From: Alphaproteobacteria bacterium
Lineage (GTDB): Bacteria > Pseudomonadota > Alphaproteobacteria > SMXP01
DNA: 64,000 nt
NCBI GenBank assembly: GCA_028285305.1
Contig: JANQPV010000037.1
Coordinates: forward strand, 94,838 to 158,837
Direction: 5' to 3'
The position numbers and the translations under genes are program-made. Positions 42,584 through 60,657 of this stretch are shown here, piece after piece; position 1 is the first letter of the stretch, and every line of letters begins with the position of its first letter. A model generated the notes under the pieces. That model made no database searches. It was not told where the DNA came from and worked only from the letters and a program-made list of their open reading frames with translations.

Positions 42584-45118
42584 TTAATTGTCTAAGAAAC
42601 TCCGCAACTTCCGGCTACGAGACGGATGCTTCAACTTCCGAAGGGCCTTCGCCTCGATTTGGCGGATGCGCTCTCGCGTAACCGAAAACTGCTGACCCAC
42701 CTCTTCCAGCGTATGGTCCGTGTTCATGCCGATGCCAAATCGCATGCGAAGCACCCGCTCCTCCCGCGGCGTTAGACTGGCGAGCACCCGCGTGGTCGTT
42801 TCGCGTAAGTTCGACTGGATCGCAGCATCAATGGGGAGCACCGCGTTCTTGTCTTCGATGAAGTCGCCCAGATGGCTGTCTTCCTCGTCGCCAATTGGCG
42901 TTTCGAGGGAGATTGGTTCCTTGGCAATCTTCATCACCTTACGAACTTTCTCAAGCGGCATTGCCAATTTTTCTGCCAGCTCTTCAGGGGTCGGCTCACG
43001 GCCGATTTCATGGAGCATCTGGCGTGAGGTGCGCACGAGTTTGTTGATCGTTTCGATCATATGGACCGGAATGCGGATGGTGCGCGCCTGGTCGGCGATC
43101 GACCGCGTGATCGCTTGGCGGATCCACCAGGTGGCATAGGTTGAAAACTTGTAGCCGCGCCGATACTCGAACTTGTCCACCGCCTTCATCAAGCCGATGT
43201 TGCCCTCTTGAATGAGGTCCAAGAACTGCAGGCCCCGGTTGGTGTATTTTTTGGCGATGGAAATAACGAGGCGCAAATTGGCCTCAACCATCTCCTTCTT
43301 TGCGATCCGGGCTTCCCGCTCACCCTTTTTGACAAGCTCAACGATCCGCCGGAAGTCGCTAATCAAAAGGCCGGTCTCCATGCCGATTTGGGCGATATCT
43401 CCGCGGATATCGAGAATTGCGTCTTCCTCCGACTGGGTAAACGACTGCCAGCCGGCACCCGGGAGCTCAGCTGCGCTCTGGAGCCATTGCGGATCGAGTT
43501 CGGACTCGAAGTAGCGCTCTAGGTACTCGGATCGCGAAACGCCGTGGCCTTCGGCCAGGCGCAACAATTTGCCCTCGAGACGCATCAGAACTTTGTTGAT
43601 GTCGTAGATCTGCTCGACCAGCTGTTCAATCCGCGCATTGTTCAAATGGACGGTCTTCACATGTTCGATAATGTCCGCTTTGAGCTTTTTGTAGCGGCGA
43701 ACCTGACTGGCGCTGAGACTGCCACCGCCGAGAGTCAATTCAATTTGTTGATCCTGCAGTTTGCGGAATTTCTTGTATTCGGCGGCGATTGCATCGAACG
43801 TTTCCATCACTTTCGGCTTGAGCTCAGCCTCCATCGCAGCCAGTGAGAGGTTGTTTTCCGCATCCTCGTCATAATCATCTTCGTCGTTCTCAGGCAGCTC
43901 TTCTCCCGCCTCTTCGGCGGCTTTGCGGCGTTCTTCACGCTTTTGTTCCGCGATTTCACGCTCGCGGCGCGCAATCACTTCCGCCTTGTCTTCCCCATTC
44001 TTCTCAGCTTCAAGAGCTGCCATAGAATGGTCGGGCTGGTTTTCAGGCCCACCGCCAAACGTTGTGTCGAGATCGATAATCTCTCGCAAAAGAATGCGGC
44101 CCTCGGTCAATTCCTCGCGCCAAACCAAAATCGCCTCGAAAGTGAGCGGGCTTTCGCACAAGGCTTGAATCATCGTCTCGCGGCCAGCTTCGATGCGCTT
44201 TGCAATCGCGATTTCACCTTCCCGCGACAACAGTTCCACACTGCCCATTTCACGCAGATACATGCGCACGGGGTCATCCGTTCGGTCAGCAACGGTGGTG
44301 GATTCACTTTTGGTTTTCGTAACGCCCGTCGATTCACGGGTCGTCAGCGCATTGCTATCCGTGGCGAGTTCTTCGGACTCATCGTTCTCCACCACGGAAA
44401 TGCCTTGGTCACTCAGCTGTGACATAAGATCTTCGATCTCTTCCGAACTCACACCGTCTGCCGGCAGAACTTCGTTCAGCTCATCATAGGTAATGTAGCC
44501 GCGGTCTTTTGCCCGCTTCATCATCTTCTTTACCGCCGAATCGCTCAGGTCGAGCAGAGGCCGGTCGCCTGATGTCTCAGACTTACCGCCGGTCGACTTC
44601 TTGCTCTTCGCGGAAGGCGTAGCCGCAGCAGCATTAGCGGCTACCTTTGCTGCCGCATTGGTCGTAGCGCCATTCGCTTCAACCGATGCATTTTCCTCTG
44701 TGAGCTTCGAATTGGCTGCTTTTGCAGTCTTTGTAGCAGCAGACTTTGTTGAAGCCGTCTTGGCCGAAGATTTTGTTTTCTTGGCTTGGGTTTCGGGAGC
44801 GGCCTTAGCTGCCGTCTTTTTGGCGGTGGTAGATTTGGTTGCAGTTGCAGTTTTTCTCGCGGCCGCCTTGGTTGCCGCAGCCCGCGTTTTTGTCCGCGCC
44901 GTTTTCGCCGCAGGTTTTGCTAGCTTTGTTTTCGCAGAAGCGGGTGATTTCGCGGAAGCTGGTTTTCGGCCGGCTGGCTTCGCTTCGGCTTTCGACGCAG
45001 TTGTCTTCTTCGTTGTGGAAGACTTTGTGGCTGCGGATTTCGTTGCCGAAGTTTTGGTTGCCGATTTTCGCGCAGTTGGGCGTTTGGTTTTTGAAGTTGA
45101 TTCTGCTGCTGTTGCCAT
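42584..45118 (-). CDS. rpoD: RNA polymerase sigma factor RpoD (sigma-70) with ~183-aa Lys/Ala/Thr-rich N-terminal extension
   Basis: All sigma-70 regions are present: region 1.1 ([34 protein letters not shown]), regions 2-4, and the C-terminal [17 protein letters not shown]. The first in-frame start upstream of region 1.1 is the ATG at 45118, which has a GAGGGG RBS and an in-frame TGA just upstream. Confidence 0.9.
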
Positions 45119-53981: not shown

Positions 53982-54053
53982 GGCTGAGCGCGAACTTTAG
54001 TATAGGAAATCCTGCGCGGGTTGCGCAACAATATTACCAAATCAAGTAAGTTT

Positions 54054-55070
54054 ATGACCGAAACGCCACTTCAAACGTTCTGCCCTCGCCCATCGGCCAC
54101 TGGTCAGGACATGTGCTGGGTTATCAGCGATGGACGCCGAGGCATAGAAAACCAGGCGCTCGGTCTCGCCGAGGCCATCGGGCTTCCCTTTGAAATCAAA
54201 CGGGTGCGGCCGAGTTGGCTTTGGCGGATCGCCCCGGCCGAGGCATATCCCCTGCTCAACACACTATGCTTCTCTCAGCCCCTGTTTGCATCTCGGGCAG
54301 ACATGTTTCGACCGCCGTGGCCGCGACTTCTGATCGCAACTGGGCGGTTGAGTTTGCCCTATTCGATCGCAGTCAAAAGGCTTAGCCGCGGCCGAACATT
54401 CACTGTTCAAACGCAAGATCCCCGAGTCTCACCCAAACACTTTAGTCTCGTCGTTCCTCCATACCACGATGGATTGCATGCGGATAATGTCGTCGCGATC
54501 GTTGGAGCGCCGAATCGAGTTCGTCTGCATGCTTTACGCGATGAATCCATCTCGATGTCCCGCCGTTTGGCGCACCTTCCACGGCCCCTTGTCGCCGTCC
54601 TGATCGGCGGATCCAGCAAAGCCCACAAGATGTCAAAAAAGTGGATGAAACGATTTGCGGAGTCCCTGGGTGAGCTTGCCCGACTCAACAAAGTGGGACT
54701 GGCAATCACTCCTTCTCGCCGGACCGGTGAAGAGAATATCTCCATCTTACGGCAAACATTATCAGCAGACGGCGCTTATATCTGGGATGGAGAAGGGAAC
54801 AACCCCTATTTTGGAATGCTCGGATTGGCCGACTATATTGTCGTAACATCAGACTCCACGAACATGGCAACAGATGCAGCCGCAACCGGAAAACCTCTTT
54901 ATGTGGCGCATGTGCCCGGTGGGTCGAGAAAGTTCAGGGCCTTCCATGAAGATTTGACCGCCCGAGGAATCGCGCGTCCGTTCACCGGAGAACTCCAATA
55001 CTGGTCCTACCCGCCCCTAAATGAAACCCAGCGTGTAGCAAATCTTATTCGAGAGAGACTGAACCTATAA
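54054..55070 (+). CDS. ELM1 / DUF1022 family protein (mitochondrial-fission ELM1-like predicted nucleotide-sugar transferase)
   Basis: The conserved N-terminal block CWVISDGRRGIENQALGLAEAIG is typical of the bacterial ELM1 family. The start is uncertain: the track gives TTG 54021, and there are ATGs at 54054 and 54111. Confidence 0.6.
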   Translation: MTETPLQTFCPRPSATGQDMCWVISDGRRGIENQALGLAEAIGLPFEIKRVRPSWLWRIAPAEAYPLLNTLCFSQPLFASRADMFRPPWPRLLIATGRLSLPYSIAVKRLSRGRTFTVQTQDPRVSPKHFSLVVPPYHDGLHADNVVAIVGAPNRVRLHALRDESISMSRRLAHLPRPLVAVLIGGSSKAHKMSKKWMKRFAESLGELARLNKVGLAITPSRRTGEENISILRQTLSADGAYIWDGEGNNPYFGMLGLADYIVVTSDSTNMATDAAATGKPLYVAHVPGGSRKFRAFHEDLTARGIARPFTGELQYWSYPPLNETQRVANLIRERLNL

Positions 55071-56212: not shown

Positions 56213-57106
56213 ATGGATTGGGATAAGATTCGAATTTTTCATGCTGTGGCTGAGGCCGGCAGCTTTACCCGAGCCGGCGACGTATTGGGCCTCAGCCAAT
56301 CGGCAATCTCAAGGCAAATCAGTTCGCTCGAAGAGGATTTGACGACAACGCTTTTCCATCGGCACGCGCGCGGGCTATTGCTAACCGAACAGGGCGAAGT
56401 GCTGTTTCGAACAGCCCATGACGTCGTGGGCAAGCTCGCCATTACAGAGGCTTTGATCTCAGAGAGTCACAATCGTCCTGAGGGCGAGCTCAAAGTCACA
56501 GCACCCGTTGGTCTGGGCTCGACATGGCTAACGCCGAGGATGAAAGAGTTCACCGAGCTCTATCCCGACATGCAGGTGCAATTGCTGCTCGATGACCGAG
56601 CGCTGGATCTTGGCATGCGGGAAGCCGACTTGGCCTTGCGGCTCAGTCCACCCACACAGGCGGACCTTGTTCAGCGCAGGCTATTAACCGTACACCACCA
56701 TATTTTTGCTTCACCGTCCTATCTTCAAAGGAATGGTGTTCCTCAGACACCTGAGGACCTAGACAATCACAAGGTGGTCAGCTACGGACAGCGCATTGGA
56801 CTGCCGACACCCAATCCGGTCAATTGGATTGAGTATCTGGGTCGTCCGGAAAACAATCCGAGGCCAGCGGTTCTCACCGTCAACAACATTTACGGCGTGC
56901 TGCAGGCGGTAGAAAGCGGCTTGGGGATCGGCGCTCTGCCTGATTACTTGGTTCAGCAGAACTCAAAAGTCGTTCCCATCCTGCCCGAAACCGAAGGGCC
57001 CACATACGATGTCTACTTCGTATATCCCGAAGAGATGAGAAACTCCAAAAGGATCGGCGTGTTCAGGGACTTCTTGCTGCGCAAGATCGCGGAATGGACT
57101 TTTTAG
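56213..57106 (+). CDS. LysR family transcriptional regulator
   Basis: N-terminal wHTH (IRIFHAVAEAGSFTRAGDVLGLSQSAISRQISSLEEDL) plus a LysR substrate-binding domain. Confidence 0.88.
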   Translation: MDWDKIRIFHAVAEAGSFTRAGDVLGLSQSAISRQISSLEEDLTTTLFHRHARGLLLTEQGEVLFRTAHDVVGKLAITEALISESHNRPEGELKVTAPVGLGSTWLTPRMKEFTELYPDMQVQLLLDDRALDLGMREADLALRLSPPTQADLVQRRLLTVHHHIFASPSYLQRNGVPQTPEDLDNHKVVSYGQRIGLPTPNPVNWIEYLGRPENNPRPAVLTVNNIYGVLQAVESGLGIGALPDYLVQQNSKVVPILPETEGPTYDVYFVYPEEMRNSKRIGVFRDFLLRKIAEWTF

Positions 57107-57116
57107 TGGCAATGAT

Positions 57117-57785
57117 CTAGCCGAAAAGCTGCGATAGTTCGTTGCGCAATTCGGTCATTGAACGGACGAGCTGACCTCCAGCGCGAGCTAGCGCATCTGT
57201 GCGCGCCAGAGGATCTCCTGCATAGGCAAAAACCTGCATCCGAGCGGCCCGTGCAGCTGTCACGCCCGGGACACTGTCTTCCACCACGATACTTCGCGCG
57301 GGCGGCGTGCCCATGTGCCTTGCTGCGAACTCAAAGAGATCAGGAAACGGTTTGCCGCGCGTCACTTGAGACGCGCTGAATATGTTGTCTCCGAAGTGGC
57401 GCTTTAGGCCGGTCTTCCCCAGCGTGAGGTGCATCTTTTCGTGCGTACCCGAGGACGCAACACAAATCCCAATTCCTTTGGCGAGAGCAAAATCGATGAC
57501 CTGCTCTACACCGGCGACGGGCTCAAGGGATTGGCGAAATCGCTCCCACGTTTCCTCTTGAAGTGTGTTCAACCAATCGTCCGGCAGCGGTCCGCCCAGC
57601 TTACCTTCGATCTTTTCCATCACCGACCCCATGGACAGACCAACATAGTCCCGGCACGACTCTTCATACGTCGTGGGCAATCCGGCCGCCGTGATCGCTT
57701 CGGCCAAGACCCGATTGGCGATGGGCTCGCTGTCGACGAGCACCCCGTCGCAGTCAAAGATGATGAGTTCAGGACGATCAGGCAA
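57117..57785 (-). CDS. HAD family hydrolase (beta-phosphoglucomutase-like phosphatase)
   Basis: Motif I IIFDCDGVLVDSE, then the remaining HAD motifs. 222 aa. Confidence 0.85.
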   Translation of the reverse strand: MPDRPELIIFDCDGVLVDSEPIANRVLAEAITAAGLPTTYEESCRDYVGLSMGSVMEKIEGKLGGPLPDDWLNTLQEETWERFRQSLEPVAGVEQVIDFALAKGIGICVASSGTHEKMHLTLGKTGLKRHFGDNIFSASQVTRGKPFPDLFEFAARHMGTPPARSIVVEDSVPGVTAARAARMQVFAYAGDPLARTDALARAGGQLVRSMTELRNELSQLFG

Positions 57786-57791
57786 TCGGAC

Positions 57792-58754
57792 CTACATATA
57801 GAGCGGTTCTTTTTCGAGCCCTTTATACAGGTGTGCCACTTGTTCTGCATAGCCATTATAGAGAAGCGTGGGGATGCGTTCATCGCTACCGAGCAACTTC
57901 TCTGTTGCTTGCGACCAGCGGCGATGAGGAACCGCGGGATTCACATTGGCCCAAAACCCATATTCTCGTGGACCCGTTGCTTGCCAAAAAGACCTCGGCC
58001 GCTGGGACGTAAACTCGAACTTGACGATCGATTTGATCGACTTAAAGCCATACTTCCAGGGTACCGCCAGGCGAAGAGGAGCACCCATTTGCTTAGGTAG
58101 TGGCTTGCCGTAAACGCCGGTTACAAGAAAAGCCATCTCGTTGGTGGCTTCCTCGATTGTAAGCCCCTCAACGTAAGGCCAAGGATACCAGCCAGCCTTC
58201 TGGCCCACCGCCATTTCGGGATCATGGAATGTCTCCATGCGGAGATACTTCGCACCCGAGAGCGGGGCGGCCATGTCAACAAGGGCCTTCAAGGGGAATC
58301 CCGTCCACGGAACGGCCATCGACCACGTTTCCACGCATCGATGACGATAGAGCCGTTCTTCCAAGTCCACGCGTTTGAGCAGATCATCAAAACTAAGCGT
58401 CTGAGGGATTTCGACGTCACCCGTAATTTGAATGTCCCAGGGGCTGACGACCAAGTCTTGCGCCCGCTTGTGGATGTTCTTTTGCGAACCGAATTCAAAG
58501 AAATTGTTGTACGTGGTTGCGAGCGCCTCAGCCGTCAAAGGCCGGTCCAAGGTGTAGGCCGGATTGCGTTCGGCCGGATAAAGGCCGCTGCCTAGAATGC
58601 TCTCTTGCGCAAGAGCTCCGCCACTCCATCCGCCCGCGAGCAAGACGCCACCCATTCCGGCCGCCTGCAAGACTCTCCGGCGGTTCCAAAAAACCGATTC
58701 TTCGGTCGCGGCGCTTTCGGGCAGTTCCCAACTTCTTCTGTGCCTAATCAGCAT
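57792..58754 (-). CDS. msrP: protein-methionine-sulfoxide reductase catalytic subunit MsrP (YedY-like molybdopterin oxidoreductase)
   Basis: Tat-type signal (RRRVLQAAGMGGVLLAGG) and YedY-family sequence throughout. The start is Met8 (58754) or the track start 58775. Confidence 0.85.
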   Translation of the reverse strand: MLIRHRRSWELPESAATEESVFWNRRRVLQAAGMGGVLLAGGWSGGALAQESILGSGLYPAERNPAYTLDRPLTAEALATTYNNFFEFGSQKNIHKRAQDLVVSPWDIQITGDVEIPQTLSFDDLLKRVDLEERLYRHRCVETWSMAVPWTGFPLKALVDMAAPLSGAKYLRMETFHDPEMAVGQKAGWYPWPYVEGLTIEEATNEMAFLVTGVYGKPLPKQMGAPLRLAVPWKYGFKSIKSIVKFEFTSQRPRSFWQATGPREYGFWANVNPAVPHRRWSQATEKLLGSDERIPTLLYNGYAEQVAHLYKGLEKEPLYM

Positions 58755-58853
58755 AAACAATCTCCATCCGAACACTGCTTATATACAGCGGTCGGAGGCG
58801 AATGAAAAATAACGATGGGTCACACTCGCGTTAAGTTAACGCCAACAAAAGAC

Positions 58854-59321
58854 TTAAGAAATAAGGCTGCGAAGCATCCAGGCCGTCTTTTCGCTCGCTT
58901 GCATACGCTGGGTGAGCAGGTCGGCCGTGGGCTCGTCGTTGGCCTCTTCAGCGAGGGGAAAGACGCTGCGGGCGGTCCGCGTCACCGCTTCATGTGCCTT
59001 TACCAGATTGGCAATCATCTCTTCTGCTTTAGGAACGCCATCTTCCTCTTCGATCGAGCTGAGCTGGGAATACGCCTTGTAGCTGCCTGGAGCAGCAACG
59101 CCCAAAGCTCTGATCCGCTCTGCGATCTCATCCACAGCAAGGGCCAGCTCATTGTATTCCTGCTCAAACATGAGATGGAGCGTGTTGAAGAGAGGTCCCG
59201 TCACATTCCAATGATAGTTATGGGTCTTCAGATAAAGAGTGTAGGTATCGGCCAATAGCCGTGAGAGCCCCTCTGCAATCTTCTCGCGCTGCTCCTGAGG
59301 GATGCCAATATCGATGTCCAT
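58854..59321 (-). CDS. dps: Dps family DNA-protection/ferritin-like protein
   Basis: [27 protein letters not shown] is a Dps ferroxidase-site signature. 155 aa. Confidence 0.9.
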
Positions 59322-59385
59322 AACGATTTCTCCGTGTAAGACTCTTCTTAGGCGTATTTAATACACCCCTGTCACAATATCAACA

Positions 59386-59408
59386 TTTTTTAGAATGATT
59401 CTAAAAAA
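59386..59408. promoter_or_regulatory. perfect 23-bp palindrome TTTTTTAGAAT-G-ATTCTAAAAAA containing an exact Irr-box / iron control element (TTTAGAA-N3-TTCTAAA) upstream of dps
   Basis: I read the palindrome directly from the sequence. Its core matches the alphaproteobacterial ICE motif bound by the Irr regulator. It lies about 65-87 bp upstream of the dps ATG. Confidence 0.55.
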
Positions 59409-59430
59409 GACAGAGCCGTCCCGACGCCCT

Positions 59431-60657
<1,227 letters not shown>

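Follow-up and report, generated by a model that had tools for sequence, protein, structure and literature searches.

A perfect ICE palindrome upstream of an alphaproteobacterial dps gene is a probable operator for the iron-responsive regulator Irr

The gap between a dps gene and an aminotransferase gene on an alphaproteobacterial contig contains a long AT-rich palindrome, raising the question of which factor recognizes this element and how it affects the expression of dps. The original prediction had described it as a perfect 23-bp palindrome upstream of dps, with a core identical to the iron control element (ICE), the target of Irr. The palindrome was analyzed in the context of the surrounding 64,000 nucleotides, referred to here as the window. 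The description of the site proved accurate: positions 59322-59430 are exactly the gap between the two genes, and both genes are on the minus strand, so that the palindrome indeed lies upstream of dps. The features of the locus are compiled in Table 1.

Table 1. Features of the dps locus, with their coordinates in the window and the basis of each assignment
Feature	Coordinates	Strand	Basis
Perfect palindrome TTTTTTAGAATgATTCTAAAAAA	59386..59408	.	sequence and repeat finder
ICE/Irr-box core TTTAGAA-N3-TTCTAAA, predicted Irr-dimer operator	59389..59405	.	exact match; kept at 12 alphaproteobacterial dps loci
Inferred -35 hexamer TTGATA, 5 nt past the ICE core	59378..59383	-	best sigma-70-like candidate by scoring; CTTGnA kept in relatives
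Inferred -10 hexamer TAAATA	59355..59360	-	17 nt past the -35 hexamer; aligns with the CCTATATT block of relatives
Alternative -10 hexamer TTAAAT	59356-59361	-	16 nt past the -35 hexamer
Shine-Dalgarno motif GGAG, 8 nt ahead of the dps ATG	59330..59333	-	aligns with GGAGG of relatives
dps, Dps-family ferritin-like protein of 155 aa, predicted regulated gene	58854..59321	-	PF00210, E 1.1e-29
msrP, catalytic subunit of periplasmic methionine-sulfoxide reductase	57792..58775	-	NF003767, 410 bits (cut-off 207)
Class I/II (aspartate-type) aminotransferase	59431..60642	-	PF00155, E 9.6e-89

The palindrome (TTTTTTAGAATgATTCTAAAAAA, also given as TTTTTTAGAATGATTCTAAAAAA) has an 11-1-11 layout. A repeat finder returned arms of 11 nt each at 59386-59396 and 59398-59408, which are 100% complementary and separated by 1 nt, with A or T at 21 of its 23 positions. 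It starts 23 nt past the stop codon of the aminotransferase gene and occupies the stretch 65-87 nt ahead of the dps ATG. The 17-nt core did not contain any mismatch to the ICE/Irr-box consensus TTTAGAA-N3-TTCTAAA (TTTAGAANNNTTCTAAA), and the three central nucleotides as well as the flanking positions also agree with the extended consensus TTTRGAAYNRTTCYAAA. The consensus cited in the original prediction is the published one: in the survey by Rodionov et al. (PMC1698941), 5'-TTTAGAA-N3-TTCTAAA-3' and its extended form are given as the target of Irr. The core was the only ICE match in the window, even when up to three mismatches were allowed, and an exact match did not occur in any of 100 dinucleotide-preserving shuffles. 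No other perfect palindrome of the window combines arms of 9 nt or longer with a spacer of 0-3 nt; perfect palindromes with arms of at least 11 nt were present in 11 of 200 Markov-1 random windows. Taken as a palindrome per se, the element is thus moderately rare, whereas as a match to a motif specified beforehand it is far beyond chance. The lack of a second ICE carries little weight, as further genes that are typically under Irr control are missing from the window as well: neither bfr, mbfA, suf or hemA nor a gene for a TonB receptor was found.

The site is located in the 5'-region of a gene linked to iron metabolism. The closest solved structure to the encoded protein is PDB 8ff9 (E 8.5e-75 over residues 1-154), and the NCBIfam Dps models matched it with scores below their cut-offs. 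The match to Agrobacterium Dps (1o9r) reached merely 1e-12, which indicates that the Dps of the window belongs to a subfamily other than the Rhizobiaceae one. On the other side of the palindrome, the best NCBIfam model for the aminotransferase was aspartate transaminase NF004769, with 566.7 bits and thus below the cut-off of 617, and the protein is 79% identical to its counterpart in Parvibaculum sedimenti. Downstream of dps follows msrP. A terminator-like site was not found between the two genes, and the dps-msrP adjacency was seen again in 10 alphaproteobacterial loci. Possibly, the two genes are transcribed together and share a putative ICE-controlled promoter. The adjacency and the missing terminator suggest that dps and msrP (57792-59321, minus strand) form an oxidative-damage module. 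An msrQ-like gene does not follow msrP here, and the next gene, at 57117-57785, encodes a HAD hydrolase. A neighboring LysR-type gene (56213-57106) was considered as a source of OxyR and discarded, as it matched YafC/GcvA-type models and not OxyR.

The remainder of the window is ordinary chromosomal core, with rpoD, dnaG, carAB, greA, lrp, trxB, pckA, modABC and photolyase genes, and it also contains a terpene/leucine-type carboxylase cluster. Two further observations concern this background. The rpoD ORF (42584-45118, minus strand) encodes 844 aa if translation begins at its first possible start codon, and the match to Pfam region 1.1 does not set in before residue 192. Either the true start is located further downstream or the sigma-70 factor has an unusually long N-terminal extension. 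Between lrp and trxB, at 54021-55070 on the plus strand, a 349-aa Mito_fiss_Elm1 protein is encoded (PF06258, E 4.6e-102), which was not matched by any NCBIfam model.

If the palindrome is an element of dps, it should be found with dps in other genomes. The comparison comprised 80 loci with close relatives of the Dps protein (70-82% identity) from species-representative genomes, 480 kb altogether; the source organism was absent from this sample. According to dps and the aminotransferase gene, the best relatives were unclassified Alphaproteobacteria, Minwuiaceae, Parvibaculaceae and Rhodobiaceae. Scanning the 480 kb for ICE with up to two mismatches yielded 14 matches, 12 of which were within 150 bp upstream of dps. 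This zone makes up 2.5% of the scanned positions (binomial P 4.6e-18, a value that overstates independence because the loci are related). An ICE preceded dps at 12 of the 27 alphaproteobacterial loci versus 0 of the 53 others (Fisher P 2.9e-7, again overstating the independence of related loci), and shuffled upstream regions gave a mean of 0.01 loci with an ICE. The claim that an ICE is part of the dps promoter thus gained support, in that ICE-like boxes recurred ahead of alphaproteobacterial dps genes and in no other sampled phylum. This distribution agrees with that expected of an Irr operator, which should be conserved at orthologous genes where Irr occurs and be missing from other lineages.

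In the alignment of the upstream regions (A1), the mean column identity was just 44%, and the operator and promoter blocks stood out as footprints. The consensus reads TTTAGAATAATTCTAAA-nnAn-CTTGnA-(~17 nt)-CCTATATT ... GGAGG ... ATG. The ICE accompanied dps irrespective of whether the upstream gene was an aminotransferase gene, an EF-G-like gene or a divergent gene. This retention of the box next to dps, despite the differing neighbors, marks it as an element of dps and not of the aminotransferase gene. At 15 of the 27 alphaproteobacterial loci the box was missing, which counts against an operator function. These included L002 and L004, two loci with some of the highest Dps identities, and the Caulobacter locus L029; the latter fits the absence of Irr reports outside the lineages named in the survey. 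In L002 (827-2866) and L004, a gene for a 679-aa EF-G-like GTPase separates dps from the aminotransferase gene, and there is no ICE. In L009 and L034, the end of the upstream gene is the same, yet an ICE-like box is kept, which is degenerate in L009 and exact in L034.

The direction of control depends on where the box lies relative to the promoter. On the minus strand, the order of elements is ICE, AAATG, TTGATA, 17 nt, TAAATA, 21 nt, GGAG, 8 nt, and ATG. With TTGATA and TAAATA as the putative hexamers, and counted from the inferred start site, the box would occupy about -57 to -41. The full palindrome would cover about -60 to -38 and come within 2 nt of the -35 hexamer. The promoter of the alignment resembles CTTGAC-N17-CTATAT, the alphaproteobacterial housekeeping promoter consensus. 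The predicted TTGATA-N17-TAAATA promoter was not among the output of a stricter promoter scan. The sole site reported by that scan is on the plus strand (59369-59396, CTGTCA-16-TAGAAT), antisense to the 3'-end of the aminotransferase gene; it is probably a by-product of the box, because its -10 hexamer TAGAAT is the ICE half-site.

For the window and for L005, L006, L008, L009 and L015, the best sigma-70-like candidate begins 5 nt past the box; the same candidate is present in L001 and L010, where it was ranked lower. In promoters of this type, the center of the box would be at about -48 to -50, as scored for sigma-70-like promoters predicted from the sequence. The same scoring of predicted promoters placed the center at about -14 in L025 and at about 0, the inferred start site, in L046 and L052. 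For L073, where the scoring was ambiguous, inspection by eye puts the box over the spacer and the -10 hexamer. The boxes of these four loci, in or against the core promoter, are in repressor positions.

Published work on Irr provides the framework for interpreting the site. According to the survey, Irr is present in all analyzed Rhizobiales and Rhodobacterales and in a few other alphaproteobacteria, ICE motifs were reported solely in genomes that contain irr, and the correspondence between ICE sites and the irr gene is strong (Rodionov et al., PMC1698941). Apo-Irr binds to the ICE, the location of the box determines whether this results in repression or activation, and haem releases or destroys Irr (PMC7762939). 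The original prediction had named ferritin-like genes as Irr targets, and the literature agrees: bfr and mbfA, both encoding ferritin-like proteins, are repressed by Irr, and in B. japonicum their boxes have a high affinity, with derepression only at high iron or H2O2. In R. sphaeroides, the mbfA start site is located inside the box and mbfA levels were higher in an irr mutant under iron limitation; the Irr-box of ccpA is about 40 nt upstream of the mapped 5'-end, and loss of irr likewise raised ccpA levels when iron was limiting (PMC3413700). In Brucella, a rise in Irr goes along with a drop of dps at both the mRNA and the protein level (PMC5587712). For dps itself, a literature search did not retrieve a paper describing an ICE upstream of the gene, nor one that ties Parvibaculum to Irr, and dps does not appear in the Brucella paper on Irr DAP-seq. 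In the 2006 survey, dps is named only within the 'iron regulons' of three Rhodobacteraceae and is not among the ICE targets described there (PMC1698941); the storage genes of Rhodobacteraceae have been assigned to the Iron-Rhodo box, and not to Irr.

Together, the exact ICE in the 5'-region of dps and its conservation there in alphaproteobacterial orthologues are the direct basis of our interpretation. The palindrome is very probably an ordinary Irr binding site. We consider it likely that it acts as an ICE/Irr-box operator within the dps promoter, at which Irr would repress transcription at low iron or haem, with derepression by iron, haem or peroxide. From the established biology of Irr, we infer that low iron would make haem scarce, leaving Irr active and able to bind to the palindrome as a dimer. 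A Fur-family dimer bound against the -35 hexamer would be expected to obstruct RNA polymerase, affecting both sigma region 4 and the C-terminal domain of the alpha subunit, and thereby to repress dps, possibly together with the downstream msrP. Rising iron or haem, or peroxide stress, would then inactivate or degrade Irr, dps would be derepressed, and Dps would sequester Fe2+. As the site does not deviate from the consensus, its affinity is probably high, with release only at high iron, by analogy to bfr and mbfA of Bradyrhizobium. The original prediction had left the direction of control unspecified; that it is negative is our inference, as the box is upstream of the -35 hexamer and not over the start site. 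Repression is favored because the boxes of some orthologues overlap the core promoter, because of the ccpA precedent and the Brucella data, and because bfr and mbfA behave in this way.

The identity of the regulator is assumed. With E. coli Fur and B. japonicum Irr as phmmer probes against the six-frame ORFs, no Fur-family ORF was found in the 64-kb window below E = 0.1. The Irr probe itself scored 214 bits with NF045678 (cut-off 150).

The main rival explanation accepts Irr as the binding protein and has it activate dps from about -49, in which case Dps would be induced under iron limitation. The position alone would permit this, as no part of the box reaches the inferred -35 hexamer and activators are classically bound at such upstream sites, and direct activation by Irr is common according to the literature. 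Activation is, however, implausible from the boxes at the -10 hexamer or start site of L025, L046 and L052, and of L073 as judged by eye. Moreover, the similarly placed ccpA box goes together with weak repression, Brucella dps responds to Irr in the opposite sense, and the other ferritin-like targets are repressed; on balance, activation appears unlikely. A second alternative, which we regard as improbable, replaces Irr by another Fur-family paralogue of the PerR-like or Fur4-like type that senses peroxide or Mn/Fe, comparable to PerR at Bacillus mrgA. Alphaproteobacteria do carry Irr paralogues of differing specificity, the ICE shares the 7-1-7 format of the Fur family, and the PerR box TTATAATNATTATAA differs from it at one symmetric position only. 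In addition, an ICE-like palindrome precedes the regulator gene at all six non-alphaproteobacterial loci with a PerR-like gene next to dps, which are treated below. The discriminating position, however, is G/C in the window, as in the ICE, and T/A in the PerR box and in the Brucella Fur4 box (TTATAAA). Accordingly, neither TTATAATNATTATAA nor the Fur4 box TTATAAADCAA was matched by the window sequence TTAGAATgATTCTAA, which has G and C in place of T and A. The restriction of ICE motifs to irr-bearing genomes reported in the survey (PMC1698941) also argues against a paralogue, and, unlike at the PerR-like loci, a regulator gene does not adjoin dps here.

Other explanations dispense with a regulator. 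The AT-rich tract could be a UP element or curved DNA that enhances dps transcription independently of a protein. In E. coli promoters, proximal subsites of UP elements lie directly upstream of the -35 hexamer, and the window has a run of six A at this place relative to the inferred -35 hexamer, within a palindrome composed almost entirely of A and T. In the relatives, however, conservation covers the dyad TTAGAAT-N-ATTCTAA with both its G and its C and does not extend to the A-run, and the 4-5 nt between box and -35 hexamer vary (ctac, caat, tttt). A UP element would also make no sense in those relatives whose box is at the -10 hexamer or the start site. Because the dyad is kept in the relatives and the A-run is not, the UP element was rejected as the main explanation, and we consider it very improbable. 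Least credible of all is that the palindrome is the intrinsic terminator of the aminotransferase gene, or that it arose by chance. Its location shortly after the aminotransferase stop codon and the lack of any other terminator-like site in the gap would suit a terminator, and a perfect palindrome with arms of 11 nt is present somewhere in about 5% of random windows. Yet in relatives dps is preceded by this box even next to unrelated or divergent upstream genes, no shuffle reproduced the pre-specified 14-base motif exactly, and its recurrence upstream of dps has a P of about 1e-17. The original prediction had judged the palindrome a poor terminator, in line with our results: the RNA hairpin would have 10 pairs, only one of them G-C, with -5.6 kcal/mol, and is followed by AAAAAAUGUUGA instead of a U tract. 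A scan of the dps-aminotransferase gap did not reveal a terminator-like site, and Rfam covariance models did not match within 59200-59550 up to E = 1. As far as the sequence goes, the weak hairpin, the missing U tail and the conservation pattern rule out a terminator role.

Repression by Irr, which we favor, can be compared with several characterized systems. Among these are bfr (bll6680) and mbfA (blr7895) of Bradyrhizobium japonicum, which have an operator consensus identical to TTTAGAA-N3-TTCTAAA in the window, are likewise ferritin-like targets for iron detoxification, and are repressed at low iron via high-affinity, near-perfect boxes. Their boxes overlap the transcription start, whereas that of the window abuts the inferred -35 hexamer from upstream; furthermore, the target is Dps instead of bacterioferritin or MbfA, and the organism is not a member of the Bradyrhizobiaceae. 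The geometry inferred here is that of ccpA in Rhodobacter sphaeroides, with the box about 40 nt upstream of the 5'-end, and Irr binds to the ccpA box in vitro. However, ccpA encodes a haem peroxidase, the affinity of its box is low (~0.9 uM) and the regulation weak, and the box of the window would be expected to be stronger. At Bacillus subtilis mrgA, PerR similarly uses a Fur-family 7-1-7 palindrome at a Dps gene, with a link to iron and peroxide stress. The boxes differ (TTATAATNATTATAA versus TTAGAATNATTCTAA in the window), and PerR senses peroxide via its bound metal, whereas Irr senses haem. Fur4 of Brucella is an alphaproteobacterial Fur-family protein of the Irr clade, and its site is AT-rich and 7-1-7-like, as is the ICE; the Fur4 box TTATAAADCAA is PerR-like and does not have the G/C of the ICE, and Fur4 responds to Mn and Fe, not to haem. 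OxyR-dependent dps promoters of the E. coli type involve the same gene class and the same logic, namely that Dps is induced when Fenton chemistry threatens, but they use a LysR-family regulator and another operator, and the lone LysR gene near dps in the window is not OxyR-like.

Outside the Alphaproteobacteria, the comparison yielded six loci with a Fur-family gene directly upstream of dps, the product of which is PerR-like with CxxC motifs. An ICE-like palindrome was present ahead of the gene pair in all six cases. Five loci are from Pyrinomonadaceae and other Acidobacteria (L035, L045, L055, L066, L075) and one is from Fibrobacterota (L056); in these PerR-like-dps loci of Acidobacteriota and Fibrobacterota, the regulator gene adjoins dps, in contrast to the window. 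The palindromes were found at about 2433-2467 in L035, L045 and L066, and at 1065-1081 in L075. In L056, the box ATTAGAATAATTCTAAT (780-796) is part of a 23-bp palindrome whose end is 5 nt from the ATG; further coordinates at this locus are 796-1248 and 1295 onward. In L055, the box TTTAGACTTAATCTAAA (2437-2453) overlaps the -10 hexamer of TTGACA-N17-TAATCT. The six PerR-like proteins scored best with PerR models, with the Irr/IrrA models close behind and all scores below the cut-offs. As a lead only, these loci hint that regulators of the PerR/Irr clade use the box as their operator and have long had dps among their targets. Because all six pairs carry an ICE-like palindrome and their regulators scored nearly equally on the Irr models, one could speculate, although we think it rather doubtful, that the link between ICE and dps is older than Irr and that control by a PerR/Irr-clade repressor via a TTAGAAT-N-ATTCTAA-type box preceded haem sensing. 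If so, the promoter in the window may be a retained piece of an ancestral peroxide and iron circuit.

Irrespective of its origin, the element described here would be a new target of a well-known regulatory system and does not imply a new mechanism. A Dps gene, encoding a protein of the PDB 8ff9 subfamily, is added to the predicted Irr regulon, and ICE-based iron control would be extended to little-studied alphaproteobacteria, namely relatives of the Parvibaculaceae, Rhodobiaceae and Minwuiaceae and some Rhodospirillales MAGs. One and the same gene would have its operator in two placements, one directly against the -35 hexamer and the other across the start site, depending on the genome. The resulting prediction is testable: in these bacteria, iron and haem status would be coupled to protection against Fenton chemistry.
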